DNA of 64,000 bases from IMG/VR virus record IMGVR_UViG_2595698890_000001, positions 14,752 to 78,751 of that record; one strand, 5' to 3'. Positions 6,222 through 51,727 of the stretch are shown piece after piece. The position numbers were made by a program, and so were the translations under genes. The stretch's first letter is position 1, and each line of letters starts with the position of its first letter. The notes beneath the pieces are model-generated. The model searched no databases. It was not told the origin of the DNA and worked only from the letters and a program-made list of their open reading frames with translations. The DNA is from a virus. Its lineage: Duplodnaviria; Caudoviricetes.

Positions 6222-6695
6222 GTGAATACTATGTCTCAGATTGACCCACAAGCGATGCTACAACAAATCCTAGCGGCTTCAGACAATCCGGCTGAACTGC
6301 TACGTGGTGCGATTCAAGAAGCTACACAAGGCGAAGGCTCTAACAACGCACTTCAACAGCTTGAGCTACTTCTTGCGTCTGATCCAAACCTTAAACACCA
6401 CCTACGCTCTGGTATGCCTTCAAGCATCCAAGAGCACTTGCGTTACGTACCGACTATGGTAGTTACATTCCAGAACGGTGCGTTCGGTGGTAAGCCAATG
6501 ACGATCAATACTTCTGACTTCGACGAAGCCCTGCACAAAAAAGTGGATATGGGTAAGTTAGTAAAAGAAGCTGCTAAGCAGGTAGAAGATGCTACGGACG
6601 AAACGGATGAGACTCCAGCGCCGGAAGAGCCAGCTGCTACTACTGAAGGCGAAGAAGATGCGCCTAAGCAACAACGCTCACGCCGTCGTAACTAA
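6222..6695 (+). CDS. Hypothetical protein with acidic then Arg-rich C-terminus
   Basis: Open frame with phage-like codon bias; bounded by terminators. Confidence 0.7.
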   Translation: MNTMSQIDPQAMLQQILAASDNPAELLRGAIQEATQGEGSNNALQQLELLLASDPNLKHHLRSGMPSSIQEHLRYVPTMVVTFQNGAFGGKPMTINTSDFDEALHKKVDMGKLVKEAAKQVEDATDETDETPAPEEPAATTEGEEDAPKQQRSRRRN

Positions 6696-6726
6696 TCTTA
6701 GTAACCGACACGGCGGATTGATTTGG

Positions 6727-6755
6727 AAGGAGGGGGCTTAGCTTCCTCCTTTTTT
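6727..6755 (+). terminator. Intrinsic terminator
   Basis: AAGGAGGGGGC-TTA-GCTTCCTCCTT plus T tract. Confidence 0.75.
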
Positions 6756-6773
6756 CGTTTCTGGAGATTACTA

Positions 6774-7316
6774 ATGGCAATCACATTAATTGTACAACAG
6801 GGTCGATACCCTATTCGCGGAGCTAACTCCTTCGCATCGGTGGAAGACGCCGACAAGTACCACGAGCAACGCGGTAACACTGCGTGGGCTGCATTAGACG
6901 CGGAGAAGAAGAAAGCCGCTCTGATCCAAGCTACGGACTTCATGGCAAGCGAGTACAAGTTCCGTGGGCGCAAGATGTATGGTGAGGAGGACCCTAACTT
7001 CCCACAACTTCTTCCTTTCCCACGCGCAGAGTTTGAGGACTCGGCTGGAAGATCTATTCTGGAGACACCGCAGGGTGTTGTCCGTGCGACTATCGAACTG
7101 GCTGGATACGCTTCAAAAGCACCTCTTTATCCGAACCAAGAGAACTTACTAAAACCGGGTGGTCTAGTTACTAAAGTTAGTAAGAAGACTGGTCCTCTCA
7201 CAACAACATACGAATACGCCAACCCTACTGTGGTACTGCGAGCTACACCTCTCTACAAGAAGGTCACTGGCTGGCTTAACGACTACACGTACACCAATGG
7301 TCGTATTCTTCGCTAG
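6774..7316 (+). CDS. Head-tail adaptor (DnaT-like ssDNA-binding family)
   Basis: GANSFASVEDADKY, KAALIQATDF, LPFPR motifs; GGAG RBS before ATG 6774. Confidence 0.8.
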   Translation: MAITLIVQQGRYPIRGANSFASVEDADKYHEQRGNTAWAALDAEKKKAALIQATDFMASEYKFRGRKMYGEEDPNFPQLLPFPRAEFEDSAGRSILETPQGVVRATIELAGYASKAPLYPNQENLLKPGGLVTKVSKKTGPLTTTYEYANPTVVLRATPLYKKVTGWLNDYTYTNGRILR

Positions 7317-7327
7317 GAGTCTTATTA

Positions 7328-7720
7328 ATGTCTGATTATACGCAGGAGCAACTAGACGCTCTAGAGAGTATCAAGGAAGCGGGAGCACAGTTCGACTTTG
7401 AACTTACCACGTTCACAGCGAATGCAGACAAGCCTTGGTTGGGTGGCACACCCTCAGTAGAGAAGATTCAACTGTGGGCGTGCGTGTTCCCCACTAGCAC
7501 CGCTCCCGGGGCTCTGACGGAGCCAATGTTCAAGGAAGGTACTTTAGTGGAGTCGCAGACCCGGTACATATTAGCCGCTGGGGAGGGTAGAACAACTCAC
7601 CCTAATACTGGCGACGTTATGAAAAACCTAGAGGGTAGCGATTGGTCTATAATGGGATGCGCCCCGCTGACTGTTAATGGTCAAGGCGCAATAATTTACG
7701 AGATGGTAGTAAAACGATGA
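7328..7720 (+). CDS. Head closure / head-tail joining protein
   Basis: Size and synteny; beta-rich C-terminus. Confidence 0.6.
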   Translation: MSDYTQEQLDALESIKEAGAQFDFELTTFTANADKPWLGGTPSVEKIQLWACVFPTSTAPGALTEPMFKEGTLVESQTRYILAAGEGRTTHPNTGDVMKNLEGSDWSIMGCAPLTVNGQGAIIYEMVVKR

Positions 7721-8136
7721 GAGATGATAAAGCTAGAGAGGTGATCGGGGAGGCGTTAGTCGCAGGTCTAAAAGCTGCGGGTATCACCATCGACATAGCT
7801 CAAGAGGGCTACCCGTACAAGGGCGCAGCCAATAAGCCTTACCTTGAGGTGAGCTTCAGTGTAGAATCGACCTCAAGCCAGTCATTAGGCGACGCGGGGA
7901 ACAGGTCTTTTGTCCGCGACGGTGTTTTCCACGTGAACGTATACACACCCTTCACAGCTGGAAGCTCTGCCATGACAGCTCACATTTACGCACTGGCAGT
8001 GCGTGATATTTTCGAAGGCAAGCACTTCGATAAAGACCTTTGGTTCTGGGAGTGTAAAGCCTCGCCAGCGGGATCAAACGGAAACTATAACGTAGCGTAC
8101 GCGAACTGCGCGTTCCGCTTTCAAGAAATCAAGTAG
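7717..8136 (+). CDS. Tail terminator protein
   Basis: 139 aa directly before the tail tube gene; GVFHVNVYTP pattern. Confidence 0.65.
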   Translation: MRDDKAREVIGEALVAGLKAAGITIDIAQEGYPYKGAANKPYLEVSFSVESTSSQSLGDAGNRSFVRDGVFHVNVYTPFTAGSSAMTAHIYALAVRDIFEGKHFDKDLWFWECKASPAGSNGNYNVAYANCAFRFQEIK

Positions 8137-8147
8137 GAGACTTACTA

Positions 8148-17230: not shown

Positions 17231-18042
17231 TGAGCTACAACGGTAAAGAGGGTAGCTTGTATGATGGTAGACCAGTAACGGTCTACCACTTCAACTACGG
17301 CGGTAAAGACTACTGGTACACTTCAGCTGATACGGCTATAAAAGACCCCACGGGGTCTTTCGATATTCCACCAGTCCACATTAAGCACGGAACGATCAAG
17401 GAGACTACCGAGGACAAGCGTGCTTCCGTCAAGATAGAGCTGGACGCACACACGGACCTTGGGAAAGCCCTGCGGGTCAACCCCGTAGATTCAGTGTGTA
17501 AGGTGAATATACTGCGAACACATCGTAACGACACTGCTAAGCAGTGGGTCTACTACTGGAGAGGTAACGTGTCGTTGGTGGGTAGGGAGGAAGCTCAAGT
17601 GCTAGCCCTTGAGTGCTCACACATGCTTACCGCGCTTGCGACTGGCGGGCTTAGAGCCCGATACAACTACCACTGCCCACACGCGCTGTACGGACCGAGC
17701 TGTAGAGCCAAGGTGACACCCGATAAGACTAAGGAGTTCGTGGTTTCAGCAATCTCCGGGAGCCATGTCAGCCTGACCGGGTGGTCTGCGACAAAATGGT
17801 GGGATGGTGGTCAACTACATTTTGCCAGTGAGAGTCATAGGCGTTACATTATGACCTCCAACACTACGGGTGTTACGCTAGACGCCGTTCCTCGGGGTCT
17901 GTCCGTAGGGGATACAGTTACCCTACAAGCAGGGTGCGACCGGACTAAGGCTACGTGCCAAACTAAGTTTAGTAACCTGCCAAATTACGGCGGCTACCTA
18001 GCGGTCCCGGTAAAGAACCCGTTCCAAGACGGGATTGTTTAA
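17230..18042 (+). CDS. Tail tip assembly protein (DUF2163 / BR0599 family)
   Basis: CPHALYGPSC and AGCDRT-TC-KFSN-NYGG Cys motifs. Confidence 0.9.
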   Translation: MSYNGKEGSLYDGRPVTVYHFNYGGKDYWYTSADTAIKDPTGSFDIPPVHIKHGTIKETTEDKRASVKIELDAHTDLGKALRVNPVDSVCKVNILRTHRNDTAKQWVYYWRGNVSLVGREEAQVLALECSHMLTALATGGLRARYNYHCPHALYGPSCRAKVTPDKTKEFVVSAISGSHVSLTGWSATKWWDGGQLHFASESHRRYIMTSNTTGVTLDAVPRGLSVGDTVTLQAGCDRTKATCQTKFSNLPNYGGYLAVPVKNPFQDGIV

Positions 18043-22359: not shown

Positions 22360-22368
22360 AACTATAAC

Positions 22369-22394
22369 AGGGAGCTTCGGCTCCCTTTATTTTT
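22369..22394 (+). terminator. Intrinsic terminator
   Basis: AGGGAGC-TTCG-GCTCCCT plus T tract. Confidence 0.85.
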
Positions 22395-23397: not shown

Positions 23398-24480
23398 ATG
23401 TCTGAAGATAAAGTGGTGCGTCTGAGTACCGCGTTAGACCCAGACACAGTACCACACGCCTTATGTAAGATTCAGTTCGCTCAGGTTCCTGTGGATGTTA
23501 TCGAAGACCTATCCAATATGGGCGTTAGTGGCAGAGCGGCGCTAACAGTGTTTGCGTGGCTTCAAGCTAAGCCTGAAGACTGGCAGATCGTCAATGAGGT
23601 GATTATGAGCCAGCTGGGGTTTAGTTCTGGAGGACTGGCAGCGGCTTTAAAAGTACTAAAGGAAGTGGGTCTCTTAGTAAAAGAGCCGATCCGGTGTACC
23701 AAGTGCGGAAAGGTTGCGTTTCATCGAAGCATATTGTCCCCACACCCGGCATTCTCAATCGACTTTCTAAAAGTAAAGTATGCGATGGTGCTGGGAAAGT
23801 GCTGCTCACCAACCGGAGACACGGTAGTTAGGAAGGCTGGAAGACCCAGTATCCATAATTTAGATACTGGACCAAATGTCCAGAATCTAAATACCCATAG
23901 GGTGGACTCTCCACACAGTGGGCAAATAGATACTACATATAAGGATAATAACTTACATGGATTATCTACTAATAAAGAATCTTCTAACGAAGATTCTATC
24001 CCCTCTAAGCGGGTGCGGAGACCTCGGCGTAAGCAGGAGGGCTTTAACGTTAGTAAACCAAAAGAAAGAAAGCCTCGTACGAAGAGTGTGGAACTTACTA
24101 AACATGTGTTTACTCTAGAGAACGTGGGAGGTGAAGAGCACACTCTTACTAAAGCGAACTTCGAACTACTCTATGATTTCGTGGAAAGACAGAAGATTGC
24201 TCTTACCCGGGGTGAGCTAGACGCTTGGCTGGAAATAAATAATGCAAGCTTAGGCTTGAAGATTAAGACGAAGCGTTCCGTGGTGGCTACCATCAAGAAC
24301 TGGCTGGCGCGTTACAGCGAAGCAGACCGCTGGAAAATAGACAAGCACTTGGGTAAGAATACTGGGCGTGTTGGGTCACGCAGACCACAGCGTCTTAACG
24401 GCAACTTGAGTGATCGCCATCGAGAGAGTGAGATCCGAGTTCCAGCGCACTTACAAAAACTAATGGATAAGGAGTCTTAG
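23398..24480 (+). CDS. Replication initiator-like protein (N-terminal wHTH, CxxC)
   Basis: WLQAKPEDW...ALKVLKEVGLL wHTH, low-complexity linker, directly upstream of a DnaC-like loader. Confidence 0.6.
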   Translation: MSEDKVVRLSTALDPDTVPHALCKIQFAQVPVDVIEDLSNMGVSGRAALTVFAWLQAKPEDWQIVNEVIMSQLGFSSGGLAAALKVLKEVGLLVKEPIRCTKCGKVAFHRSILSPHPAFSIDFLKVKYAMVLGKCCSPTGDTVVRKAGRPSIHNLDTGPNVQNLNTHRVDSPHSGQIDTTYKDNNLHGLSTNKESSNEDSIPSKRVRRPRRKQEGFNVSKPKERKPRTKSVELTKHVFTLENVGGEEHTLTKANFELLYDFVERQKIALTRGELDAWLEINNASLGLKIKTKRSVVATIKNWLARYSEADRWKIDKHLGKNTGRVGSRRPQRLNGNLSDRHRESEIRVPAHLQKLMDKES

Positions 24481-29697: not shown

Positions 29698-30311
29698 TGG
29701 CTTTACTAAGACGTAGAGTTATCCACACACCAACTAAGAGCGGGCGCTTACGCGCTCGCCTTGTCGTTGAGAAGGTTACTAATAGTAAACCGACTACCCG
29801 CAAGCGCAAGAAGCGCCTAAAGGATTCCCTTCACAGCCAGCTATGCCTACTAGCCAAGAAGTGGATCTACAAGCAGGGGTTTGGGGTAGCCGTGGATGAC
29901 AGGATGAAAGCTGCCTGTGTTACCGGAGAGCAGCCGGACGCTTTAGGGTGGAGAGCTAGCGTTAGCATTCTGATCGAGGTCAAGACATCCCGAAGCGACT
30001 TCCTTGCCGACAAGAACAAGAAGTTCCGGGCAGACCCGTCGATAGGGATGGGAGACTGGCGCTTTTACCTGTGTCCTAAAGACCTAATTAGTAAAGATGA
30101 GCTCCCGGAAGGTTGGGGGCTTCTCTACTATAGCGACGGCAAGATCCGTCGGGTGCACGGTGGTCCTAAAAGCAACGGGTGGACGTTCGACTCAATACCC
30201 TTCCGTGGTAATAAAGAGTGTGAGATGTCCTACATGTATTCGGCTCTCAGACGTATGGTAGTACGAGGTCACTTAGAGTCTATGTATTCAATGGACGGCA
30301 TTAAGAAATGA
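29697..30311 (+). CDS. PD-(D/E)xK nuclease, MmcB-like
   Basis: EQPDALGW, IEVKTSRSDFLAD, ELPEGWGLL. Confidence 0.75.
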   Translation: MALLRRRVIHTPTKSGRLRARLVVEKVTNSKPTTRKRKKRLKDSLHSQLCLLAKKWIYKQGFGVAVDDRMKAACVTGEQPDALGWRASVSILIEVKTSRSDFLADKNKKFRADPSIGMGDWRFYLCPKDLISKDELPEGWGLLYYSDGKIRRVHGGPKSNGWTFDSIPFRGNKECEMSYMYSALRRMVVRGHLESMYSMDGIKK

Positions 30312-31432
30312 GTATTTTCAAACGTAAGGGCGTGGAAGCATGGCTTGAGATCTTCAACAAGCATAGCATCACGTACGCAACTAAGCATAAGAACTGTAAG
30401 CGGGGCAACGTCGTAATTGACTGCCCTTTCTGTGCTAACTCTGAAGGCAAGTTCCACATGGGTGTGGACAAGAACGGTCGTTTCGGTTGCTGGAAGAACC
30501 AAGAGCACCGTGGGTCCTCCCCGCACAAGCTGCTCGTAGCACTGCTTCGAATCTCCCCGGCAGAAGCCTCCCGTATGGTGGGCGCTGACGAGGGTCAGGT
30601 AGACGAGGATGACTGGAACTCTTTACTAAGAAGTCTGAGTACGTGGGAAGAAGAAGACTACCCGGAAGACGACGACGAGGAAGAGGATGAGATAGTTAAG
30701 GGTATGAAGATGCCTAAGCAGTTCATCCCGGTAGCTCCGTTCGGAGACGCCGCCGATTACTTCTACTACATCATGGACCGTGGGTTTCCTCGGAAGGATG
30801 TTCGCAAATTAGTAAAACACTTCGACCTACGCTGTTGCGATACTTGGGATCGTGTTGCCGGGAAGATTTGGTACGAGCGTATAATCACGCCAGTGTGCTT
30901 ACATGGCGAGTTAATGTGTTGGGGTAGCCGAACCATAAACCCAGACGACGAGCTGCGCTACATGTCCCTGCCAGCCGATGAGAGTATCATCCCCGTTAAG
31001 GAGTTGGTGTACAACTACGATAACTGCATGGAGGGCGGCAAGATACTTCTTTTAGTAGAGGGTCAGGTGGACGTGTGGAAGTTGGACTTCTACGGGAAAG
31101 AGCACGGGATACGCGCAGCTGGTCTTTTTAGTAAATCTATCGTACCATCTCAGGTAGACCTAGTGCATGACCTGAAGAAGCAGTTCGATCACACGTTCCT
31201 ACTACTCGATGCGAACGAGGAAGCCTACGGACTTTCTTTGTGTGATTTACTAAACGGGTACGGGAAGCGCGTTAAAACCCTCATCTGGGATGGTAACGAC
31301 GAAGACCCGGGAGCGGCTACTTACAGAGAGCTAGAAACTTTTTTTAAAAAATTACTAAAAAAGACTTTACTAAAACGAACGAGGTCGGTACTATTACCTC
31401 GCTCCCAACGAAAGGGGACAAGAAATGAATGA
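30308..31432 (+). CDS. DNA primase (zinc finger plus TOPRIM)
   Basis: CPFC...GCW zinc finger, VEGQVD, LLDAN, DPG. Confidence 0.85.
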   Translation: MSIFKRKGVEAWLEIFNKHSITYATKHKNCKRGNVVIDCPFCANSEGKFHMGVDKNGRFGCWKNQEHRGSSPHKLLVALLRISPAEASRMVGADEGQVDEDDWNSLLRSLSTWEEEDYPEDDDEEEDEIVKGMKMPKQFIPVAPFGDAADYFYYIMDRGFPRKDVRKLVKHFDLRCCDTWDRVAGKIWYERIITPVCLHGELMCWGSRTINPDDELRYMSLPADESIIPVKELVYNYDNCMEGGKILLLVEGQVDVWKLDFYGKEHGIRAAGLFSKSIVPSQVDLVHDLKKQFDHTFLLLDANEEAYGLSLCDLLNGYGKRVKTLIWDGNDEDPGAATYRELETFFKKLLKKTLLKRTRSVLLPRSQRKGTRNE

Positions 31433-31952
31433 ATACCACGCGAAATTAGTAAAATCTAATTTCAAGGGCGTTCGAGAGATTTGCAAGGTAGAGCATCCTA
31501 CCATCGCTGGTCAGACATTCCGTTACTTCGATTTCGATGACGAGAACTTGCTGGGAGTGATTGGTCCGGGTGGTCCGCAAATCTTTAACCCATCTACAGC
31601 GCACACCCACATGGGCGAAGTGCTGATTAAATGGATGGAATCTGGAGACGAAGAAGTTTTTACTAAACTTAAACAAGTTGAGCAAAGACCTCGCCGTCGA
31701 AAACGTTCAAAATTAGTTGAAGACGAAAAACCAAAAACTCGTCAACGACGTATAGTTAAAGCAGACAAAGGTGATGATGATGTCAATTCAAACCAACGTA
31801 AACGCAGACCACGGCTCAAACCCGCACATGAAACCTTCCGAGCAGACTTGGAAACCAAAGTTCGAGGGCGAAATCGAAGGGTACGTAATGAACTGGGTTC
31901 GCAACAACCACTGGAAAGTAAACCAGCAACTTCCCGACGTAGAAGACGTTAA
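31425..31952 (+). CDS. Hypothetical protein with very basic C-terminal half
   Basis: RBS AAGGGG; overlaps the next gene by about 180 bp. Confidence 0.6.
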   Translation: MNEYHAKLVKSNFKGVREICKVEHPTIAGQTFRYFDFDDENLLGVIGPGGPQIFNPSTAHTHMGEVLIKWMESGDEEVFTKLKQVEQRPRRRKRSKLVEDEKPKTRQRRIVKADKGDDDVNSNQRKRRPRLKPAHETFRADLETKVRGRNRRVRNELGSQQPLESKPATSRRRRR

Positions 31953-32473: not shown

Positions 32474-33634
32474 ATGACTCTGACTAAAGCAATCCTAGAA
32501 GAACTTATCCAAGCAACTAACACTCCACGTGCAAAGCGTGACTCTCACGAGAAACACTTGCAGAAGATTGTTAAAGCTGTCGGCGCTCTTGACGACGATG
32601 CTTGGGACGCTCTTTCCGATGAAGCTGCGGAATGGTACAATGATGCCGTAAATGCAATTAACGACGGTCAAGACATCCCGGGCTCTGAAAAAGACCCGAT
32701 GGAAGCCGAAGAAGAAAAACCAGCGCGTTCACGCCGTGGACGTAACACTAAAACTGAAGAAACGGAAAACCAACCAATGAAAAAAGTACTTGTAGCAATC
32801 GCACTAGCAGAAGTAGTTAAAGGCATCACAGCAACTGTAGTTTGTGGCGATGACACTTTTGAAGGCGAAGTAATTGCGGTTACTAAGAAAGGTCGCGGCA
32901 AGAACGCAACTGTTGAAGAGTTCACTCTGAAAACAGCTGACGGTGAAGAAGTGTTTGGTGCTGAAGACTTGATCTTCGACGAAGGCGACAAGATCGAACG
33001 TCACGACGAAGCTCCAGCGGAAGAAGAGAAGAAGCCTTCTCGCTCACGTCGCGGCGCTAAGAAAGACGAAGAGCCAGCGGCTGAAGAAAAACCTACACGC
33101 TCTCGCCGTGGTGCTAAGAAAGAAGAGCCGAAGCCAGAGCCTGTTGAAGTTGAAACAGAAATCGCATTCAACGACATCGCTAAAGGCGACAAGCTGAAGC
33201 TTCAAGTTGAAGACGACGCTTTCGAAGGTGAAGTTAAAGCGGTTAAGAAATCTGGTCGCGGCAAGAACGCTAAAGTAGCAGAGTTCACTCTTACTACGGC
33301 AGACGGCGAAGAAGTCTTCGAAGCAGACCACATTGTGGTTGAAGAAGGCGACAAGATCATCCGCGTTACTATGGAAGAGCCTAAAGCGGAAGCCGCTGGC
33401 GAAGAGAAGAAAACTGGTTCTCGTCGCGGTCGTGGTGCTAAGACAGGTGGTGCGGAATCAGCAGCTCACCAAGTACGTCGCCTAATCTGTGAAAACATGG
33501 ACGCGGACAAGAAAGAAATCGAAGAGTTGATGGCTGAAAACGGCATCGACATGAAACCTTCAACTTTCGACGTGCTATACAGCGAAGCGCACAGCCTAAT
33601 CGGTGTTCTTCGTGAACTAGACAAGTTGGCATAA
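32474..33634 (+). CDS. Abundant hypothetical protein with two repeated beta domains and RSRRG linkers
   Basis: Internal duplication of about 70 aa; strongly biased codons. Confidence 0.8.
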   Translation: MTLTKAILEELIQATNTPRAKRDSHEKHLQKIVKAVGALDDDAWDALSDEAAEWYNDAVNAINDGQDIPGSEKDPMEAEEEKPARSRRGRNTKTEETENQPMKKVLVAIALAEVVKGITATVVCGDDTFEGEVIAVTKKGRGKNATVEEFTLKTADGEEVFGAEDLIFDEGDKIERHDEAPAEEEKKPSRSRRGAKKDEEPAAEEKPTRSRRGAKKEEPKPEPVEVETEIAFNDIAKGDKLKLQVEDDAFEGEVKAVKKSGRGKNAKVAEFTLTTADGEEVFEADHIVVEEGDKIIRVTMEEPKAEAAGEEKKTGSRRGRGAKTGGAESAAHQVRRLICENMDADKKEIEELMAENGIDMKPSTFDVLYSEAHSLIGVLRELDKLA

Positions 33635-39814: not shown

Positions 39815-40306
39815 ATGTCGTATGACACTTCAGAAACTGCAATCCGATCATTTAAGGGTCGCCTACGTATAGATAAGAACGATTTGGACAACGAGCTTGT
39901 TGAGCAATCGCACTTATTCTTCGAGGTATCAGAACGCCTTACTTGGGCGAAAGCAGAACGCGACGAGATTAAGCGCGAATGCGATGAACTTGCCGGGGAG
40001 ATCAAAGCGGAGATATTCGCGGATAACCCTAAGATGGCAGACACCAAAGCTACAGCTTTAGTAAAGAAGGACGCAGATTTTATTGAGCGTTACCGAGAAA
40101 AAACTGAAGCGGATCGTATAGTTGGAGCATGGGAGGCGCTTGTAGAAGCATTCAAGTCTCGCGGCTACATGCTCCGTCAACTGGCGGACCTGTATGTAGC
40201 GAACTACTACTCTCCGATTAGTGGTGGTGAATCGCAAGATGACAAGCGTCGTAAGAGTGCCGAGCGCACAGAGCGTAGTGAAAGCAGAAGACGACGGAGC
40301 AGATAG
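39815..40306 (+). CDS. Recombination mediator, UvsY-like
   Basis: LRIDKNDLDNE start and helical coiled coil; lies near the SSB and RecA genes. Confidence 0.6.
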   Translation: MSYDTSETAIRSFKGRLRIDKNDLDNELVEQSHLFFEVSERLTWAKAERDEIKRECDELAGEIKAEIFADNPKMADTKATALVKKDADFIERYREKTEADRIVGAWEALVEAFKSRGYMLRQLADLYVANYYSPISGGESQDDKRRKSAERTERSESRRRRSR

Positions 40307-40308
40307 TT

Positions 40309-40449
40309 ATGGAGCATTTACCAGCACTAGCGGGAATTGTGGTAATATCCCCTATCGCCATTTACGCAGCAGCGCGTATGGCTACCAAGGCTTACTTTTT
40401 CAGTAAGCTAGAGTTTCTTACTAAAGTTAAAACAAAAGGATGGCAATAA
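40309..40449 (+). CDS. Small membrane protein (46 aa), not in the ORF track
   Basis: MEHLPALAGIVVISPIAIYAAARMATK...; GGAG RBS; TAATG coupling to the SSB gene. Confidence 0.6.
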   Translation: MEHLPALAGIVVISPIAIYAAARMATKAYFFSKLEFLTKVKTKGWQ

Positions 40450-41612
40450 TGTCAAGACGTGATCGTAACAGTCGTGGTGGTCGTAAAGGTTTCGAGTACA
40501 AGAAACGTTCTAAAGAGCAGGTACAGAAACGTGCCGACCAGTCTTCAGGCGACTTTAAGTCAATCTTCAAAGACGGCATTAAGCTGTTTAAGCCTAAGAA
40601 GGGCGACAACGCAATCCGCATCCTCCCGGCTACTTGGGAAGACCCGGACCACTACGCACTAGACGTGCATGTCCACTACGGTGTTGGTGCTGACGAAGAG
40701 CGCGTGCTAGCACTACACGAGATGTTAGGTGAAGATGACCCAATCCGTGAGATGCGCATGGACTACGAGCAAGCTGGCAACAAGGAGATGGCTAAGGCTT
40801 GTCGTCCGGGACGTGCTTGTGCGATGTGGGTAATCGACTTGGACAACGAAGCTGAAGGTCCGCAGATGTACCTAGCGCCACCTACGGTAGACGCTGGTAT
40901 CGCGCAGGTTAGTATCGACAAGCGTTCTGGTGAGATGTACGACATTGACGACCCAGACAACGGCTACGAAGTCTACTTTACTAAACAGGGCGAAGGGATG
41001 AACACGAAGTACGTGGGCTTCCAGATTTCACGCAACCCATCTGAAGTAGATGAAGAGCACTTAGATTACGCCATCGAGAACCCAATCCCGGACTGCTTAG
41101 TTTACTTAGAGTACGACGAGATTGCTAAGATGATCGACGGCTGGGAACCAACTCCACGCGGTAAAGGTGGTAAAGACGGTGGTAAAGAAAAGCCTAAATC
41201 ATATCGCGGACGTGACCGTGATCGCGGTGACGACGCTGATGATAGCCGCAGCCGTCGCGGTGGCAGCGACGATAGCAAGTCTGGCGGTGATCGCGGTGAA
41301 GGTGATTACCAATACGATGACGTTATGGCGGCAGACTGGGAAGAGCTTGAGCAGATTATCGAGCTTGAAGAACTTGACATTGACCCAATGGACTTTGACG
41401 AAGATGACCAAGAAGGCTGTGCTAAAGCAATCTGTGAAGAACTGGGCATTGAGAAACCTAAGCCTACTCGCTCTGCTCGCGGTGGCTCTCGTCGTAGCCG
41501 TGGCGGTGATAGTGACGATGGTGATTCTCGATCTTCCCGCCGCCGTGGTCGTGGCGACGACGGTGATGACAGCTCTGAACGCGTTCGCGGTATGCGTCGA
41601 AATCGTCGCTAA
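40449..41612 (+). CDS. Single-stranded DNA-binding protein (T4 gp32-like core) with long RG/RS-rich tail
   Basis: GDNAIRILP, VHYG, DPDNGY, KQGEGMNTKY core motifs. Confidence 0.75.
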   Translation: MSRRDRNSRGGRKGFEYKKRSKEQVQKRADQSSGDFKSIFKDGIKLFKPKKGDNAIRILPATWEDPDHYALDVHVHYGVGADEERVLALHEMLGEDDPIREMRMDYEQAGNKEMAKACRPGRACAMWVIDLDNEAEGPQMYLAPPTVDAGIAQVSIDKRSGEMYDIDDPDNGYEVYFTKQGEGMNTKYVGFQISRNPSEVDEEHLDYAIENPIPDCLVYLEYDEIAKMIDGWEPTPRGKGGKDGGKEKPKSYRGRDRDRGDDADDSRSRRGGSDDSKSGGDRGEGDYQYDDVMAADWEELEQIIELEELDIDPMDFDEDDQEGCAKAICEELGIEKPKPTRSARGGSRRSRGGDSDDGDSRSSRRRGRGDDGDDSSERVRGMRRNRR

Positions 41613-42351: not shown

Positions 42352-43464
42352 ATGACAGAAACAAGACGCCGCCGTACTAAAGCTGTTGAGAAGGACGAGG
42401 CTAAGAAGCCACGTACACGCCGCTCAAAAGCTCCAGAAACGGCTTCAGAAGAAAAACCGAAGGAACGTGCGAACGCGTACTTCGTATCCACGGAGAAAGG
42501 CGTGGAGGGCTTTTCTACCGGGTGTTGTTTGTTCGACCAAGCCCTAGGTGGTATCGGGTGGGCTACCCGTCGTATCATCAACATCGTAGGTGACAAATCG
42601 ACTGGTAAGACACTCTTAGCCATCGAAGGTATGATCAACTTCCACCGCACCTTCATCGATCAGAACCCGCGTATCATTTACAAGGAGTGTGAATCCGCGT
42701 TCGACGAGCCGTACGCAGCTGCTCTAGGCTTACCACTGGACGACATCGAGGTAGACGACGACCTTGATACCGTGGAAGACATGTACGAAGACATCGAGCG
42801 CATCGTTATGGAAGCAGAGCGAGACCCGCGCCCTATACTGTACATCGTGGATAGCTTGGATGGTCTAAGTGACCGCGCGGAACAGGGTCGTAAGATTGAC
42901 GAAGCCAGCTATGGTCAGGATAAGGCTAAGAAGCTTTCAGAGTTCTTCCGTAAGAAGAAGAAGGTGATGTCTAAGGCTAACATTACTTTACTAATAGTAA
43001 GCCAGATTCGTGATAACATTAACGCCGCTGCCTTTGGTAAAAAGTCAAAGCGCTCAGGCGGCAAGGCTTTGGACTTTTATTGTAGTCAAGTAGTGTGGCT
43101 AGCAAACCTAGGCAAAGTGACTAAGGCTGTCAAAGGCAAGAAGCGTATCGTTGGGGTAGACATCCGAGCAGCTATCGAGAAGAACAAGGTGGGCAACCCA
43201 TTCCGCACCGCCGATTACCCGATAATTTTTGGGTATGGCTGTGATGACATCTACGCTTCCGTTGAGTGGCTACAGTCAAACGTGGGCTGGGATGTGCTTG
43301 AGGACCTAGGCTTCAAGAAGACCACCTACAAAGCTATGTGCGCTAAGATCCGCGATAAAGGTGGTGTAGAGGCTAAGGAGTTACGGGAGAAGCTGAACGC
43401 CTTAGTAATCCACCACTGGCAAGAGATAGAGCTAGATCTTATGCCTCAAAGCAGCAAGTATTAA
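42352..43464 (+). CDS. recA: RecA / UvsX-like recombinase
   Basis: GDKSTGKT, IVDSL, SQIR, GGKALDFY, KNKVGNPFR. Confidence 0.9.
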   Translation: MTETRRRRTKAVEKDEAKKPRTRRSKAPETASEEKPKERANAYFVSTEKGVEGFSTGCCLFDQALGGIGWATRRIINIVGDKSTGKTLLAIEGMINFHRTFIDQNPRIIYKECESAFDEPYAAALGLPLDDIEVDDDLDTVEDMYEDIERIVMEAERDPRPILYIVDSLDGLSDRAEQGRKIDEASYGQDKAKKLSEFFRKKKKVMSKANITLLIVSQIRDNINAAAFGKKSKRSGGKALDFYCSQVVWLANLGKVTKAVKGKKRIVGVDIRAAIEKNKVGNPFRTADYPIIFGYGCDDIYASVEWLQSNVGWDVLEDLGFKKTTYKAMCAKIRDKGGVEAKELREKLNALVIHHWQEIELDLMPQSSKY

Positions 43465-44027: not shown

Positions 44028-44045
44028 CATACATTGGAGACCAGC

Positions 44046-44636
44046 ATGATCGAAGAAGACCTGTACATGGGCTTAGACTGCTCCCTAAACAACTCGGGCA
44101 TTACGATCTTTGGTAAGCAAACAGGATACATCTATGAGAGCATCAAGCCTAAGTGCCAAGGGTATGAGCGCCTTGCTTTTATCCACGATAGTCTTACTAA
44201 AATACTCGATAAATACCCGAACATCAAAGGAGCTAACATCGAGCGGTATGCCTACGGCAAGGGCGGTGATAATAAGTCCAATGCCGGGATGGTATTCAAC
44301 ATCGGTGAAGGCGGTGGCGTCGTGCGACTGGCGTTATTTTCGAAGCAAATACCTGTCCTCCTCACTAGCCCGAATACTGGGAAGAAGTACGCTACTGGAA
44401 AGGGTACAGGCGGCAAGGAAATAATCCTGAAGGAAGTGTACAAACGCTTCGGAGAGGACCTTAACGACGACAACCTCGCCGACGCTTTAGTAATGGCACG
44501 TATAGCTTACCACTGGTTTACAGATGACTACGAAGGTCTTACTAAGGCTCAGATAGAAGCGGTAAAAGCTGCCTCTCTCGAATACGAGCCGCCTAAGCCT
44601 AAGAGTCGCCGCAAAAGGAGAGTAACTAAGAAATGA
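44046..44636 (+). CDS. RuvC-like Holliday junction resolvase
   Basis: MGLDCSLNNSG, IE, KKYATGKG, DDNLADA. Confidence 0.85.
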   Translation: MIEEDLYMGLDCSLNNSGITIFGKQTGYIYESIKPKCQGYERLAFIHDSLTKILDKYPNIKGANIERYAYGKGGDNKSNAGMVFNIGEGGGVVRLALFSKQIPVLLTSPNTGKKYATGKGTGGKEIILKEVYKRFGEDLNDDNLADALVMARIAYHWFTDDYEGLTKAQIEAVKAASLEYEPPKPKSRRKRRVTKK

Positions 44637-47481: not shown

Positions 47482-48098
47482 TGCTAAATTTTACTGTTAG
47501 TAAAACTAACCTGATTATGTTCCCGTGGGTTCGTAACACACTCGTAGCGGAAGACACACAGCCTTGTATCAGCGGCGTGTTTAACGTTAAGTTTGTGCTC
47601 AACGCAGAGTCTCAATCGGACTCGGAAGAGATTGTGGACCACTCATTCATCGACGCCTATGCGGGCATGATCGCGGACTTGTTCCGTGATACTAACATCG
47701 TGTGGGATAAGGACGAGGCTGGGCGTACGGTGGCGAAGTCCATCCACGAGTCTTACCCTCGCACTCGAATCCTGACAACGCCGTACAACCCTACTATGGA
47801 GAACGTAGCCGGGATGTTCTACGCGATTATGCACCGCGTGCTGTGTGCTAGTAACTTTACTAACTCGGAAGACCCGGACCTATGCCTTGTGTCTGTAGTG
47901 CTGGAAGACGTAACACGTGGGCATTCGGCTGAGTGTACGCAGTGGGCGCACGAGGGGCGCTACATGAAGAACGGTGCACAATTCCATTGGACGGAATCCA
48001 TCACGGACTTATCTGAGTTTGACGTGGTATCACTTTTTACTGAGGACGTTCGTATAGGTGTTCCAGTAGCAGGTACTACGGTAGACAAGTATGAGTAG
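47481..48098 (+). CDS. QueD / PTPS-like T-fold protein lacking the catalytic His residues
   Basis: NPTMENVA motif and overall spacing; no HGH. Confidence 0.5.
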   Translation: MLNFTVSKTNLIMFPWVRNTLVAEDTQPCISGVFNVKFVLNAESQSDSEEIVDHSFIDAYAGMIADLFRDTNIVWDKDEAGRTVAKSIHESYPRTRILTTPYNPTMENVAGMFYAIMHRVLCASNFTNSEDPDLCLVSVVLEDVTRGHSAECTQWAHEGRYMKNGAQFHWTESITDLSEFDVVSLFTEDVRIGVPVAGTTVDKYE

Positions 48099-48450
48099 CC
48101 AAGAATTACAAATTAACGATGTCGTGGAAGTGGTGGTTACGTCTAACCACTTCCTTGAGATGTTTAACAAGGTGGGTCGTATAACCAAGAAGCACGGCTC
48201 ATTTTACTGGGTAAAGTTCAAGTTTAATTTTAGTAACGACAATAAGCATTTACACGTTTACGACCAAGTAGACTTTGGACCTTTCAGCATCAACCAACTA
48301 AAACTATTGGAGAAATCAGAAAATGACTCAAGCAGCGAAGAAAGTACTAAGCCTGTCGCAAATCGTAGGAAAGTTCGCCGGGTGCGTAATCGAATTGAAC
48401 CGCAACCAGTTCCCCGCCCAACTAGAAGGCGTCGTGCAAGACTTAACTAA
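48091..48450 (+). CDS. Hypothetical protein (SH3/KOW-like start, Arg-rich tail)
   Basis: LQINDVVEV...VGRITK pattern; overlaps both neighbours. Confidence 0.55.
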   Translation: MSSQELQINDVVEVVVTSNHFLEMFNKVGRITKKHGSFYWVKFKFNFSNDNKHLHVYDQVDFGPFSINQLKLLEKSENDSSSEESTKPVANRRKVRRVRNRIEPQPVPRPTRRRRARLN

Positions 48451-49560: not shown

Positions 49561-49587
49561 GGGTCTCCTTCGGGGGACCCTTTTTTT
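49561..49587 (+). terminator. Intrinsic terminator
   Basis: GGGTCTCC-TTCG-GGGGACCC plus T7. Confidence 0.9.
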
Positions 49588-49645
49588 ATTCCCGTCCGCG
49601 ATGTATCCTATGTGGGTAAACCTACCAATCAGATCCGGGGATGCT

Positions 49646-50140
49646 ATGGCAGAACAAGAAGAGAAAAAGCCGCGCCAACGCAGACAGCGCCAGCAGATAC
49701 TAAGTGTCGCCCAGCGCCGTATTCAGCGTACGTGGAAGCTTGACGAAGATACTAAGACTCGATTCATTGAGGCGATCCTCAAGGGGATGAGTGAAGAGCG
49801 AGCCTGTATGCTTGTTAAGATCAACAAGGTGCACTACTACGAGAAGAAGAAGAAGGTTATGGAGTACCTTCAGTCCGGGATTGAGCCAGACGGTGGTGAT
49901 GATCCGCGTAGCAACATCGACGAGTGGGCATCGTTCATCGAGGACGTGGAATCTGCAATTGCAGAGCACGAGCTCAACCTGATTGACGACGCGCTGGACA
50001 TCGACTCAGATGCTCGCAATAAGGCATTCTGGGCTCGTAACGTGACTATACTAGAACGACGCAACCGGGCAGACTGGGGACGCAACGAGACGCTTACACA
50101 CAACATCGGGCACTACGACCCGGACGACAAATTCCTTTAA
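49646..50140 (+). CDS. Probable terminase small subunit
   Basis: KLDEDT-RFIEAI-G-AC HTH and ILERR-WGR motif typical of a TerS family. Confidence 0.6.
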   Translation: MAEQEEKKPRQRRQRQQILSVAQRRIQRTWKLDEDTKTRFIEAILKGMSEERACMLVKINKVHYYEKKKKVMEYLQSGIEPDGGDDPRSNIDEWASFIEDVESAIAEHELNLIDDALDIDSDARNKAFWARNVTILERRNRADWGRNETLTHNIGHYDPDDKFL

Positions 50141-50166
50141 TATTAGTAAAAGTAAAGTCAGCGATA

Positions 50167-50197
50167 AAAGGGAGCCTAAGTGGTTCCCTTTTCTTTT
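50167..50197 (+). terminator. Intrinsic terminator
   Basis: AAAAGGGAGCC-TAAGT-GGTTCCCTTTT. Confidence 0.8.
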
Positions 50198-50247
50198 GGG
50201 CGGCGTATAGGTGGTTGTCACCAACAATGCCTAGGAGGGATGACATA

Positions 50248-50937
50248 GTGAAAGAACGATACAGCCACGAGTTGAAGCGCTGGCATAAGTGGCTTGGGAT
50301 TTGGCGCATAAACAAAGACTCGGTAGACACTAAGTGGGGCTACTTTGCACCGCGCTGGGCGTTAGAGTTGAAGTGGAACAAGGGTGGGTACTTTGACAAC
50401 CGCTGCTCGCTAGACATCGGACTCGTCTGGGGGATGTTCCATATCGACCTGCCGATCCGCATTAAAGATATGAAGGTCAGCTGTGAATGGGATACCTTCG
50501 GCTTTTACTTGTTCGAGAGGGATTTAGTATGGCGCTGGGGTAAGGTCTACAAATCATGGAGCCTACCGTTCGTATCATGGGTGTTCGATTTCCATCAAGT
50601 CATGCACAAGGATGGACACTGGATCGATGGGGACCGTGCGTGGAGGAACGAGGATGTAGAGAAGCATGTCTTCGACTACACGTATGTTCTGGAGTGCGGC
50701 GAAGTCCAGCACAGGAAGGCGACCTGCTACCGAGAGCGACGCCAGTGGCACCGCAAGTGGCTGCCCTTACTAAAACAGTGTGGGGTGGATATTAACGTCT
50801 CGTTCGACGGTGAGGTAGGAGAGGGCACCGGATCTTGGAAAGGTGGTACTGTAGGCTGCGGCTGGGAGATGATCCCCGGTGAGTCTATCGAACAGTGCCT
50901 AAGACGTATGGAAAAAGAGCGTAAGTTCACAAGATAA
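50248..50937 (+). CDS. Hypothetical Trp-rich phage protein
   Basis: AGGAGG RBS before GTG 50248; GEVGEGTGSWKGGTVGCG motif. Confidence 0.75.
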   Translation: MKERYSHELKRWHKWLGIWRINKDSVDTKWGYFAPRWALELKWNKGGYFDNRCSLDIGLVWGMFHIDLPIRIKDMKVSCEWDTFGFYLFERDLVWRWGKVYKSWSLPFVSWVFDFHQVMHKDGHWIDGDRAWRNEDVEKHVFDYTYVLECGEVQHRKATCYRERRQWHRKWLPLLKQCGVDINVSFDGEVGEGTGSWKGGTVGCGWEMIPGESIEQCLRRMEKERKFTR

Positions 50938-51010
50938 TTAACTTTTTAAACACGTATATATTTTAGCAACCGGGAATAATCCCTTAACCTTAGTAAAAAG
51001 GAACAACTCA

Positions 51011-51727
51011 ATGAGTAAGAAAATTTTAGTAGCATCATTCGCAACAGCTCTAACGTCTTTTGCCGCGGAAGTTCGTGAGAAGATTACCGCAGTAAAGACA
51101 GCAGCTGGTTCCCTAGCGTTTGACATCCTAGCGGGTGGCGCTACCGATTCAGGCACGGAAGTTAAGATCGCAGAAGCTAAGACCGAAGTTAATACCCTTG
51201 AATATGCCCTAGGCACTATCGAAGGTTTGCTAGCTACGTTCGGTGTGGATGGTGCAATCCCGTTAGTAATCTCCGGGGAGCTGGAAGACATCTCGATCAC
51301 TAAGCCGAAGAACGTCCCAACGCTTACGATCAGCACTTTCCGCGACTTACACCTTATCGAAGGCAAGAACGCTTTTGTGCAGACTAAAGAAGGTGAGTTC
51401 TACGTGTTGATCCAGTCAGTGTCGTCCGTAGAGGGTAACGACGAGGTGTCAACAGAGTACACATACGTCACTAAGATTCTGGCAACGCTTACAGCTGGTT
51501 ACGTAGAAGCTACTAAGGCTACCACTACCGGGCGTACTTCAGCGCGTAAACCTGCAACTTCTAACAAGCCAGCAAGTAAGAAGCCAGCGTCTAAGAAGCC
51601 AGCGGCTAAAGACGCAGACAAGAAGACCGAGCCAGCGCGTTCACGCCGTCCTCGCCCTAACACGGCTAAGAAGGAAGACGCGCCAAAAAACTCGGAAGCG
51701 GCAACTCAGGGAACTTCCGAAAGTTAA
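51011..51727 (+). CDS. Hypothetical protein with histone H1-like KKPA tail
   Basis: KPASKKPASKKPAAK and ARSRRPRP C-terminus. Confidence 0.75.
   Translation: MSKKILVASFATALTSFAAEVREKITAVKTAAGSLAFDILAGGATDSGTEVKIAEAKTEVNTLEYALGTIEGLLATFGVDGAIPLVISGELEDISITKPKNVPTLTISTFRDLHLIEGKNAFVQTKEGEFYVLIQSVSSVEGNDEVSTEYTYVTKILATLTAGYVEATKATTTGRTSARKPATSNKPASKKPASKKPAAKDADKKTEPARSRRPRPNTAKKEDAPKNSEAATQGTSES

Follow-up and report, generated by a model that had tools for sequence, protein, structure and literature searches.

Results

Short arginine clusters are enriched in the proteome of this phage, lie in segments predicted to be disordered, and have arginines that are better conserved than the flanking residues. 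The DNA that we analysed, a stretch of 64,000 nucleotides referred to as the window, belongs to a Mardecavirus, a Vibrio siphophage, and is 96.6% identical to phage R01. The bearers are the initiator, a nuclease-like protein, a gp32-like SSB, a UvsY-like mediator, RecA, RuvC, the small terminase (TerS) and several proteins of unknown function (Table 1). Our favoured reading, in which we place about even confidence, is that the clusters are short positive 'stickers' in the disordered tails and linkers of proteins working on DNA, and tether those proteins electrostatically to DNA and acidic partners. The stickers would most likely raise the local nucleic-acid affinity of their bearers; long acidic tracts in the SSB and in the scaffold-like orf32474 family may be a second binding target. 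We infer both these binding partners and the benefit of the tails, which would be a recombination and DNA-processing machinery whose members are tethered to their substrate and to one another.

Table 1. Proteins of the window that carry arginine-rich or basic segments
Feature	Position (nt)	Strand	Description
orf6222, head-module protein	6222..6695	+	C-terminal tip KQQRSRRRN, nt 6666-6692, after acidic linker
Replication initiator	23398..24480	+	phrog_11233, E 5.5e-31
Initiator, interdomain linker PSKRVRRPRRKQE	24001-24039	+	
Initiator, GRVGSRRPQRLN	24364-24399	+	
MmcB-like protein	29697..30311	+	Basic N-terminus, MALLRRR and TRKRKKR, nt 29697-29819
orf31425, conserved gene without annotation	31425..31952	+	Five Arg clusters in C-terminal half, nt 31677-31949, the last being KPATSRRRRR
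orf32474, scaffold-like	32474..33634	+	N-terminal helical domain, two small beta-barrels, C-terminal three-helix domain
orf32474, four KPxRSRRG-type islands in acidic linkers	32717-32752, 33032-33061, 33089-33118, 33413-33442	+	
UvsY-like mediator (putative)	39815..40306	+	C-terminal tail RRKSAERTERSESRRRRSR, nt 40247-40303
gp32-like SSB	40440..41612	+	Basic N-terminus, nt 40446-40484
SSB, polyampholyte disordered regions	41199-41267, 41475-41561	+	
SSB, basic C-terminal tip ERVRGMRRNRR	41577-41609	+	
RecA-type recombinase	42352..43464	+	45-residue N-terminal extension, TRRRRTK and KPRTRRSK, nt 42352-42432
RuvC-like resolvase	44034..44636	+	C-terminal KPKSRRKRRVTKK, nt 44598-44630; Pfam RuvC, phrog_159
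orf48091, small conserved gene without annotation	48091..48450	+	C-terminal ANRRKVRRVRNR ... RPTRRRRARLN, nt 48358-48447, within Tad5-MazG overlap
Small terminase (TerS)	49646..50140	+	Start as in R01 annotation; N-terminal EEKKPRQRRQRQ, nt 49664-49699
orf51011	51011..51727	+	C-terminal KPAxKKPA repeats and EPARSRRPRP, nt 51629-51664; upstream of ParB

All arginine strings quoted in the initial annotation were found in the translations of the 12 proteins it named. We scored a cluster as at least four Arg in any seven residues, a metric picked after the data had been seen; 11 of the 12 proteins reach it, the exception being the MmcB-like protein, with a maximum of three Arg in seven and a K/R cluster. 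Our own greedy ORF caller gave 106 naive calls of at least 50 residues genome-wide, a set that excludes orf31425 and orf48091 (overlap filter) and takes in a few small ORFs of doubtful status at 56-58 kb. This set contains 18 clusters on 15 proteins, and 13 of the 18 are terminal (no more than 30 residues from an end). Shuffling within proteins yielded 5.9 ± 2.1 proteins and 2.15 ± 1.5 terminal clusters, and none of 300 reached the observed values. With the same caller, lambda (6/74), T7 (2/48) and T1 (3/75) pooled to 11/197 proteins, compared with 15/106 here (odds ratio 2.8, p = 0.017); proteins with terminal clusters numbered 7/197 and 11/106, respectively (odds ratio 3.1, p = 0.022). Cluster frequency is thus about 2.5 times that of the shuffles and about 2.8 times that of the control phages, the GC-matched comparison being one of three phages only, with p about 0.02. 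The full control set, extended by partial T5 and ICP1 sequences and by 15 viral loci neighbouring ThyA, scored 21/707, and in its low-GC members clusters of Lys and Arg together were rare as well. These counts go against the possibility, raised in the initial annotation, that such tails are no more frequent than in control phage proteomes.

The clusters could in principle be an artefact of base composition, of mis-called or overlapping frames, or of a repeated DNA element read as arginine, which we consider highly improbable. Gene overlaps do contain the orf48091 tails and some of those of orf31425 (whose last 182 nt overlap the longest-ORF start of orf31771), and the annotations of R01, SSP002 and KF4 lack both genes. 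The earlier caveat that overlap may inflate their arginine content is right in part: both orf48091 clusters lie inside the Tad5-MazG gene overlap, but the first two orf31425 clusters precede any overlap. The substitution patterns of both genes are clearly those of a coding frame: synonymous/nonsynonymous counts for orf31425, intact in R01, SSP002 and KF4, are 27/20 and 30/14 in its own frame and 2-6/42-48 in the others, and the non-overlapping part of orf48091, intact in three relatives, gives 18/14 and 14/12 vs 2-3/28-36. Overlap is no concern for the other ten of the 12 proteins, all with matches to PHROG families that hold annotated phage proteins, and arginine makes up an ordinary 5.8% of the proteome at a GC content of 0.50. 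Arg codon usage inside the clusters is that of the genome, no nucleotide word common to them was found, and synonymous codons vary between the KPxRSRRG copies. Across three subclades, cluster arginines are identical in 166/194 comparisons with SSP002 and KF4, compared with 601/868 for the 15-residue flanks (p = 2e-6) and 3646/4722 for the remaining positions. Together, these data indicate selection on the protein rather than the DNA, and an artefact at the level of DNA or reading frame is largely refuted. Most clusters sit in linkers or at termini that are unstructured in the AlphaFold2 (AF2) models, and the hydrophobic fraction near them is 0.00-0.22, compared with 0.23-0.33 protein-wide.

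In the replication/recombination/packaging block (23087-53322), 10 of 33 genes score, whereas the structural/lysis block has two scoring genes among 25. For genes no further than 10 kb from RecA the count is 7/21, compared with 46/474 in GC-matched relatives (p = 0.004). All scoring proteins of known function are DNA binders, a generalisation only partly established because five of the 12 tail-bearing proteins lack a known function. PolA, both helicases, the primase, clamp, clamp loader, 5'-3' exonuclease, ThyA, Tmk, MazG and SbcCD do not score. A strict acid-KP-RxRR pattern matches two proteins only in this genome; in related loci it occurs 19 times where 3.5 are expected, a five-fold enrichment reached by none of 100 shuffles. 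The initial annotation had proposed a single shared signal that addresses DNA-metabolism proteins to a replication compartment. As stated, this is not supported by the strict pattern, and the polymerase, helicases, clamp and other proteins that such an address should mark lack tails, while TerS and one head-module protein carry them. The restriction to DNA binders, these absences and the want of a strict motif lead us to prefer electrostatic stickers to a general compartment address. Overall, the earlier interpretation is partly supported: its acidic partner tracts are plausible receivers, judging from the sequences of the SSB and orf32474, whose acidic linkers carry Arg islands. The TTASTAA word, to which it had tentatively linked the tails, is strongly enriched and, among the genomes examined, restricted to Mardecavirus; the link consists of co-occurrence in this one lineage only.

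The tails are conserved in relatives, contrary to a further possibility raised at the outset. We sampled 79 related viral loci from a broad clade of uncultured phages (RecA 40-52% identical, GC 0.32-0.69), in which basic tails or Arg islands are kept on the gp32-like SSB, the UvsY-like mediator, RecA and the orf32474 family; members with a GC content of 0.32-0.36 still retain Arg. On these four families the clusters are ancient. At least three Arg in seven occur in the last 45 residues of 43/54 UvsY-like orthologs, and 54/72 SSB orthologs have a basic C-terminal tail, compared with 264/1408 for other proteins of the same loci. Among the nearest RecA homologs, 96/120 have at least three K/R in their first 12 residues. 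The tails of RuvC, TerS, the initiator and the others were traced within the genus only, except that the RuvC tail is also present in the three nearest outgroup homologs. Of the genomes examined, which cover the nearest outgroups in part, those of Mardecavirus alone showed tails on about a dozen proteins. Five complete distant relatives, in which the ORF caller is noisy at a GC content of 0.56-0.63, show a weak excess of Arg clusters across the proteome (observed count reached by 12, 18, 0, 27 and 11 of 100 shuffles), an observation that speaks against the sticker reading.

Foldseek matches the SSB core to the RB69 and T4 gp32 cores (2a1k and 1gpc; E from 1.6e-7 to 5e-6), and its Pfam gp32 score of 26.3 bits is just below the cut-off of 26.8. 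In the AF2 model the core spans residues 40-235, and residues 241-287 and 346-377 are disordered (pLDDT below 50). Acidic tracts are present in the SSB and its orthologs, with Arg islands in the long acidic linkers; the N-terminal extensions of the orthologs alternate Arg-rich with acidic blocks, as do the two disordered regions of the SSB itself. The UvsY-like protein matches phrog_231 (E 7e-4) and phrog_1069 (E 9e-23). In RecA the Pfam domain covers residues 47-297, and alignments to remote phage RecAs begin only at residue 46-66. The RuvC tip is present in 4/4 homologs at 51-91% identity and missing from 4/4 at 39% or less.

Orf32474 has 335 remote homologs, with Arg islands in 93 of 150 representatives, and the family was found in all five complete related genomes. 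The family has one to four islands inside acidic linkers, and the consensus E-E-E-[KA]-P-x-R-R-R-x-A-A-[DE] persists at an overall identity of about 25%. The AF2 model is folded at residues 1-70, 110-178, 232-290 and 330-386, with linkers at pLDDT <50.

Several of the remaining tails persist where their surroundings change. The orf6222 tip is kept in SSP002 and KF4 despite a diverging linker (homologs of orf6222 were found within the genus only, 3/3 hits), the initiator has the same linker motif in R01-type and SSP002-type phages despite their different N-terminal domains, and orf51011 retains a PxRSR(R/K)PR core between diverging flanks. The N-terminal TerS cluster is conserved in SSP002 and KF4; phrog_4102 aligns only from residue 34 of the long ORF, placing this basic arm outside the profile. 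The basic clusters of the MmcB-like protein are present as described, but its name was not confirmed: no Pfam match at E <= 0.01 was found, and the protein belongs to phrog_631 (unknown function), with a weak match to the 'DNA repair protein' phrog_5429 (E 4.2e-9).

Discussion

Three other readings accept the clusters as real. Each protein might have evolved a basic arm of its own, with neither partner nor logic in common, the apparent series being a by-product. DNA-binding proteins commonly have basic tails (lambda N and Int scored among our controls), and the tails described here vary in position (N-terminus, C-terminus or linker), sequence and age. Control phages, too, show an about two-fold enrichment of the loose P..RxRR pattern, so some Arg clustering is generic to natural proteins. 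We nevertheless regard this reading as unlikely, given a density about three times that of GC-matched model phages, a raised count near RecA relative to GC-matched relatives, and a K-P-x-[RST]-S/R-R-R flavour with acidic lead-in that recurs on unrelated proteins and suggests convergence on one solution. About equally doubtful is a condensate or compartment, the reading of the initial annotation, in which multivalent Arg islands and acidic spacers of the SSB and orf32474 would phase-separate and the tails of other proteins recruit them as clients. The charge-patterned disorder of the SSB and the islands in the acidic linkers of orf32474 do amount to a sticker-and-spacer design, and islands of similar type occur on unrelated families across the clade. 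T4 UvsX and gp32 are described as condensing in vitro with PEG, and a disordered region of UvsX as recruiting UvsY and a polymerase (PMC11951158). Against a client signal speak the tail-less polymerase, helicases, primase, clamp, clamp loader and nucleotide enzymes and the tailed TerS and head-module protein, and neither a strict common motif nor AF2 docking of the orf32474 linkers on any domain was found.

That undocked model, which includes orf32474's own motifs, bears equally on a distinctly improbable reading: a short linear motif recognised by a folded receptor, such as the Sm/Tudor/SH3-like barrels of orf32474, which would build a scaffold-and-client network. The long-lived family consensus and the enrichment of the strict pattern in related loci are what such a receptor predicts, and the barrels are acidic, with a weak resemblance to peptide- or RNA-binding small barrels. 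However, the fold matches are generic (Foldseek E >= 3.8e-3, VIA Z <= 7.4), and two matching proteins in this genome would make a small clientele.

We count T4 gp32 as a precedent for electrostatic stickers: its basic N-terminal KRKST ('LAST') motif is described as conferring cooperativity, and its acidic C-domain as binding partner proteins (PMC12893549). The window SSB shares the gp32 fold, a basic N-terminus (with a KKRSK stretch) and acidic tracts after the core, and the order clamp loader, UvsY-like, SSB, RecA is kept in 54-71 of the 79 related loci. Unlike in gp32, its acidic region is interleaved with Arg blocks, it ends in a basic helix rather than an acidic end, and AF2 predicts an extra helical domain at residues 290-340; unlike in T4, the partners RecA, UvsY-like and RuvC bear Arg tails. 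E. coli SSB is presented as a hub whose acidic C-terminal tip and disordered linker recruit many partners, and which phase-separates (PMC10018359, PMC10164576). In the window protein, too, long disordered stretches could serve to organise proteins of genome maintenance. It is a gp32-type monomer rather than a homotetrameric OB protein and ends in RGMRRNRR instead of a DDDIPF-like tip; here the partners would carry the short peptide 'handles', and these would be oppositely charged.

AT-hooks and other basic disordered DNA-binding tails are of the HMGA type, and RGRP is the DNA-binding core of the AT-hook. The tails of the window resemble them as short K/P/R-rich motifs in disordered regions of DNA-handling proteins, and RGRP cores occur in the homologous N-terminal tail of the three nearest outgroup RecAs (3/120 in a search limited to RecA homologs). 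None of the tail strings quoted from the window contains this core, and Pfam gave no AT_hook match. AT-hooks are also reported in the recombination accessory factor Swi2 (PMC10164574). Many islands here differ in being flanked by acidic residues; such islands are not ideal plain DNA binders, an observation that weighs against the sticker reading.

In RNase E-type bacterial RNases, C-terminal domains patterned in arginine and acidic charge scaffold degradosomes and droplets. The SSB and the N-terminal extensions of its orthologs similarly alternate Arg-rich and acidic blocks over long disorder. The phage blocks are far shorter, are dispersed over many proteins, and belong to a setting of DNA recombination and replication.

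Arginine clusters in the Mardecavirus proteome

Arginine clusters were scored throughout with a single metric, at least four Arg in any seven residues, which was picked after the data had been seen. By this measure, 11 of the 12 proteins reported in the initial annotation to carry Arg-rich tags bear a cluster: orf6222 (orf numbers are start coordinates in the window), the initiator, orf31425, orf32474, the UvsY-like protein, SSB, RecA, RuvC, orf48091, TerS and orf51011. The MmcB-like protein, whose name lacks Pfam confirmation, is the exception, with 3 Arg in seven residues plus a Lys/Arg cluster. Every Arg peptide quoted in that annotation was found in the translations, and its observation is confirmed.

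Genome-wide, using our own ORF caller (106 ORFs), 15 proteins score; they contain 18 clusters, 13 of them no more than 30 residues from a terminus. Shuffling residues within each protein gave 5.9 ± 2.1 scoring proteins and 2.15 ± 1.5 terminal clusters, and none of 300 shuffles matched the observed values. The Arg content of the proteome is an ordinary 5.8%. The clusters are also more frequent than in control phages run through the same pipeline (lambda, 6/74; T7, 2/48; T1, 3/75). The pooled controls give 11/197 against 15/106 (odds ratio 2.8, p = 0.017), and 7/197 against 11/106 for proteins with terminal clusters (p = 0.022). When parts of T5 and ICP1 and 15 unrelated viral loci are included, 21 of 707 control proteins score. 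Lys tails replacing Arg were not seen in the low-GC control phages. The excess is real but moderate, as estimated from few control phages and naive ORF calls.

The window comprises bases 14752-78751 of a 78,751-bp virus record, with a GC content of ~0.50. Vibrio phage R01 is 96.6% identical to it over 12 kb and SSP002/KF5-type phages are ~80% identical; all belong to the genus Mardecavirus. Nearly all long ORFs in the window, and every gene analysed here, lie on the plus strand. Genes between 6222 and 51727 were named by PHROG and Pfam scans. They include an initiator, DnaC-like loader, 5'-3' exonuclease, DnaB-like and SNF2 helicases and primase; a clamp, family-A polymerase, ThyA and clamp loader; a weakly UvsY-like protein, gp32-like SSB, Tmk and RecA; and RuvC, SbcCD, MazG, small terminase and ParB. 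In the window, 10 of 33 genes in the replication, recombination and packaging block score, compared with 2 of 25 structural and lysis genes.

A repeat element or codon bias acting at the DNA level was considered as the source of the clusters. The cluster Arg codons (CGT 49, CGC 43, AGA 18, CGA 12, CGG 7, AGG 4) are used in proportions like those of the whole genome, and synonymous codons vary among the four KPxRSRRG copies of orf32474; this explanation is therefore rejected. Gene overlaps, which the initial annotation had warned could inflate Arg content, are ruled out as an explanation, together with ghost ORFs, for 10 of the 12 named proteins. The warning applies in full only to orf48091, because both its clusters sit inside the overlap with the following gene, and in part to orf31425, whose clusters 1 and 2 are located before the overlap with its neighbour. 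Synonymous to nonsynonymous counts in the non-overlapping parts are 27/20 and 30/14 for orf31425 and 18/14 and 14/12 for orf48091; the alternative frames give 2-6 synonymous against 28-48 nonsynonymous changes. By sequence comparison, both are conserved protein-coding genes absent from the annotation of R01, SSP002 and KF4. In both, the N-terminal ~80 residues look folded, and the Arg-rich tail extends into the next gene.

Conservation of the tails

The tails are conserved in relatives, a point on which the initial annotation had staked its proposal. In alignments with SSP002 and KF4, cluster Arg residues are identical in 166 of 194 comparisons, more often than the 15-residue flanks (601/868, p = 2e-6) or the remainder of the tail-bearing proteins (3646/4722, p = 0.006). 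In orf6222, RSR(R/N/S)R is kept while the acidic linker diverges; in the initiator, SKRxRRxR is kept despite an N-terminal domain that cannot be aligned between R01-type and SSP002-type phages. The hydrophobic fraction is 0.00-0.22 around every cluster, compared with 0.23-0.33 for the whole proteins.

A locus search for close relatives with RecA alone returned a single locus. An alignment-based scan gave 79 further viral loci with RecA proteins 40-52% identical and a GC content of 0.32-0.69, in which blastp found orthologs of the clamp loader (63), UvsY-like protein (54), SSB (71) and SbcD (52). At least three Arg in seven within the last 45 residues are present in 54 of 72 SSB orthologs and 43 of 54 UvsY-like orthologs, against a baseline of 264/1408 for other proteins of the same loci. 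Arg persists in the ortholog tails of members down to a GC content of 0.32-0.36.

The AlphaFold2 model of SSB has a core (residues 40-235, pLDDT 94-98), a helical domain (290-340) and a terminal helix of moderate confidence; residues 241-287 and 346-377, which hold Arg/Asp blocks, are modelled as disordered. The core matches those of RB69 and T4 gp32 in Foldseek (E 1.6e-7 to 1.5e-5, probability 1.0). The sequence matches phrog_1192 SSB (E 2.9e-16) and falls just under the Pfam gp32 cut-off (26.3 against 26.8 bits, E 9.2e-6); a sequence search of the PDB gave no matches at E <= 1. By these matches, SSB has a gp32 OB-fold core. Near its N-terminus, KKRSK at residues 21-25, a possible counterpart of the basic (K/R)3(S/T)2 cooperativity motif of T4 gp32, is preceded by SRRDRNSRGGRK; the orthologs have a related F-x-Y-K-K-R-S stretch, many have Arg/Asp/Ser-rich N-terminal extensions, and their C-termini show a KLRRMRExR-type pattern after long acidic runs.

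The RecA N-tail is an addition, since alignments with remote phage RecA proteins begin only at residue 46-66. Nearly all of the best 120 RecA homologs (42-100% identity) have a basic N-terminal extension of 25-60 residues, and 96 of them have at least three Lys or Arg among the first 12 residues. The basic tip of RuvC is kept in four homologs at 51-91% identity and missing in four at <=39%.

Of the 21 window proteins encoded no more than 10 kb from RecA, 7 score; in relatives of GC 0.45-0.55 the figure is 46 of 474 (p = 0.004). In five complete distant relatives, the observed cluster count is matched in 12, 18, 0, 27 and 11 of 100 shuffles; a proteome-wide excess is weak or absent there, by a test whose ORF calls are not dependable at GC 0.56-0.63. 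TerS, orf51011, orf48091 and RuvC have no blastp homologs in the 79 loci, and all three matches of orf6222 lie within the genus, in a search that sees only exact shared 5-residue words. From these distributions, the tails of SSB, the UvsY-like protein, RecA and the orf32474 family appear to be old. Among the genomes examined, Mardecavirus alone showed the wider series, with the RuvC tail also in the nearest outgroup. Three distant relatives encode a protein of 483-484 residues with a stretch of Arg and then one of acidic residues at its C-terminus, as in GRRRRREEDDDEE.

The orf32474 family

No annotated function was found for this family among the database matches. The AlphaFold2 model of orf32474, based on a 60-sequence alignment, has an N-terminal helical domain, two small β-barrels (strands at 119-177 and 240-283) and a C-terminal three-helix domain; the linkers holding all four KPxRSRRG motifs are below pLDDT 50. 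By tblastn against phage records, the protein appeared restricted to the genus (38 records, all Vibrio). A full HMMER scan retrieved 335 representative clusters, whose members have both terminal domains in common and contain one or two barrels. Arg islands, clusters set in an acidic linker, occur in 93 of the 150 representatives listed (161 segments), with the consensus E-E-E-[K/A]-P-small-R-R-R-x-A-A-[D/E]. Seven of the 79 loci have a match to the family profile at their upstream edge, and all five complete related genomes have one full-length copy ~10-12 kb from RecA by coordinate subtraction, which places the family in a conserved module shared with RecA, SSB and the UvsY-like protein.

The modelled barrels weakly resemble Sm, Tudor, SH3 and L19 barrels. 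VIA Z scores against L19, Hfq, Sm and Tudor chains are 5.3-7.4, and Foldseek retrieves only generic small barrels at E >= 3.8e-3, with the N- and C-terminal domains barely covered. Pfam barrel matches in relatives are mostly below cut-off; in one homolog (P0138), PUA_4 reaches 26.8 bits against a cut-off of 23.9.

Proposed role of the tails

The scoring proteins with known function are all DNA binders: initiator, SSB, mediator, recombinase, resolvase and small terminase. PolA, the helicases, primase, clamp, clamp loader, exonuclease, SbcCD, ThyA, Tmk and MazG do not score; these are enzymes otherwise held on DNA, or never touching it. Such a distribution is more in keeping with affinity tails than with an address to a compartment. 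We give about an even chance to the idea that the Arg clusters are electrostatic stickers tethering DNA-handling proteins to nucleic acid and to acidic tracts of SSB and the scaffold-like orf32474 protein. The tails would raise the hold of these proteins on nucleic acid; the acidic lead-ins, and the acidic tracts in SSB and the orf32474 family, suggest acidic protein segments as their second target. In T4 gp32, a basic KRKST motif and the acidic C-domain mediate cooperativity and partner binding (PMC12893549). Taken with the gp32 core and the acidic tracts of SSB, this precedent favours the sticker reading.

The initial annotation had proposed one shared addressing signal that concentrates these proteins in a replication compartment or condensate, an interpretation that is partly supported. 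A strict motif (acid-KP-RxRR) gives four matches in just two proteins of the genome, and a looser P..RxRR pattern is about two-fold enriched in control phages too; the claim of a single motif is therefore dropped. An import signal for a phage nucleus or other compartment would go with a shell or compartment protein and would sit on the imported replication enzymes; the core replisome and nucleotide enzymes have no tails. That the tail-bearing proteins are clients of phase separation by SSB and orf32474 we think unlikely; the sticker-and-spacer look of these two would suit a condensate, and T4 UvsX and gp32 demix in vitro with PEG via a disordered region (PMC11951158). More speculative still, and in our view quite improbable, is a lineage-wide electrostatic Arg code that recruits clients to a hub or condensate, a membrane-less DNA factory in a mid-sized siphophage. 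Here the stickers would be read by acidic SSB tracts and the small acidic orf32474 barrels in a multivalent hub. RuvC, TerS, the initiator and others would have acquired the code within Mardecavirus, side by side with the genus-specific, >20-fold enriched word TTASTAA that dots the genome.

This word occurs 240 times in the window (9.6 ± 2.9 in shuffles) and 294 times in the whole genome (12.5 expected). Parts of SSP002, KF4 and R01 contain 173, 167 and 188 copies (~8 expected); five distant relatives, lambda, T7 and T1 are at background level. In the window, 75 of the 240 sites are not wholly within a called gene, and many lie at gene ends or starts.

Comparison with known systems

The T4 recombination proteins UvsX, UvsY and gp32 are textbook systems used in isothermal amplification, and how they find each other is understood mainly via the acidic SSB tail. 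The C-terminal domain of T4 gp32 is purely acidic, unstructured and partner-binding. The SSB studied here has no such domain; instead, a folded helical domain occurs together with Arg blocks and acidic runs in its last 150 residues, and the chain terminates with the basic tip ERVRGMRRNRR. The E. coli SSB tip and linker hub likewise differs, with an acidic-hydrophobic DDDIPF-type tip in place of the basic C-terminus. AT-hooks have an R-G-R-P core. RGRP was not seen in the quoted tail strings of the window, and Pfam AT_hook gave no match at E <= 10, in a search whose filters may drop such short models; among the best 120 RecA homologs it occurs in the N-tails of three, the nearest outgroup proteins (P0003-P0005). 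Charge-patterned RNase tails are another close system. In the Arg-rich RNA-binding motif of the lambda N type, an Arg-rich helix binds a specific RNA hairpin; lambda N scored in the control set. Short basic handles on the partners, a basic SSB tip and an Arg island repeated in the unstudied orf32474 scaffold family set the present system apart. Open-access literature gave no description of Arg tails in Mardecavirus or of this SSB family.

In a large phage clade of mostly uncultured members, the layout seems to differ from that of T4: partners with Arg tails, an SSB with mixed-charge disordered regions and a basic tip, and a conserved scaffold-like orf32474 protein repeating the same Arg island. 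If the tails are assembly handles, this would be a second design for SSB-centred hubs, would give the orf32474 family a function, and would make available portable tags with which proteins could be brought to phage DNA. As nothing more than generic DNA-affinity tails, they would be an ordinary finding.

Other features of the genome

Orf51011, encoded directly upstream of ParB, has a histone-H1-like KPAxKKPA repeat run before its Arg island, possibly as a nucleoid-type protein of the phage. Between R01-type and SSP002/KF4-type phages, the initiator cannot be aligned over its N-terminal half; its linker and C-terminal domain are conserved. The difference resembles a domain swap and may be connected with origin specificity. 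R01 and KF4 have the basic 23-residue C-terminus of the primase, KKTLLKRTRSVLLPRSQRKGTRNE; the SSP002 gene stops early and lacks KKTLLKRTRSVLLPRSQRKGTRNE. Towards the end of the window, GC falls from ~0.50 to 0.43-0.46 across small ORFs without assigned function. The small terminase gene is flanked by two anti-defence genes, encoding a Tad5-MazG protein and Acb3.

Coordinates of the features discussed (window positions unless another record is named; L004 is the SSP002-side record, and G002, G003 and G005 are complete distant relatives)
Feature	Position	Strand	Remarks
TTASTAA example sites	1308-1314, 6209-6215, 22353-22493, 52176-52236		
Initiator, N-terminal half	23398-24000; L004 18424-18900		
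Primase	30308-31432; L004 25266-26321		
orf31425	31425-31952	+	Intact in R01, SSP002 and KF4; no annotation there, no PHROG match
orf48091	48091-48450	+	Intact in R01, SSP002 and KF4; no annotation there, no PHROG match
MazG-like gene with N-terminal Tad5 (type I Thoeris inhibitor) domain	48323-49507	+	PF25190, E 1.9e-25
Acb3 CBASS inhibitor gene	50215-50937		PF25187, E 1.1e-79
orf51011	51011-51727		
Low-GC region	56000-64000		
483-484-residue protein with Arg-then-acidic end	G002 16452-17906		
483-484-residue protein with Arg-then-acidic end	G003 68489-69940	-	
483-484-residue protein with Arg-then-acidic end	G005 3292-4743
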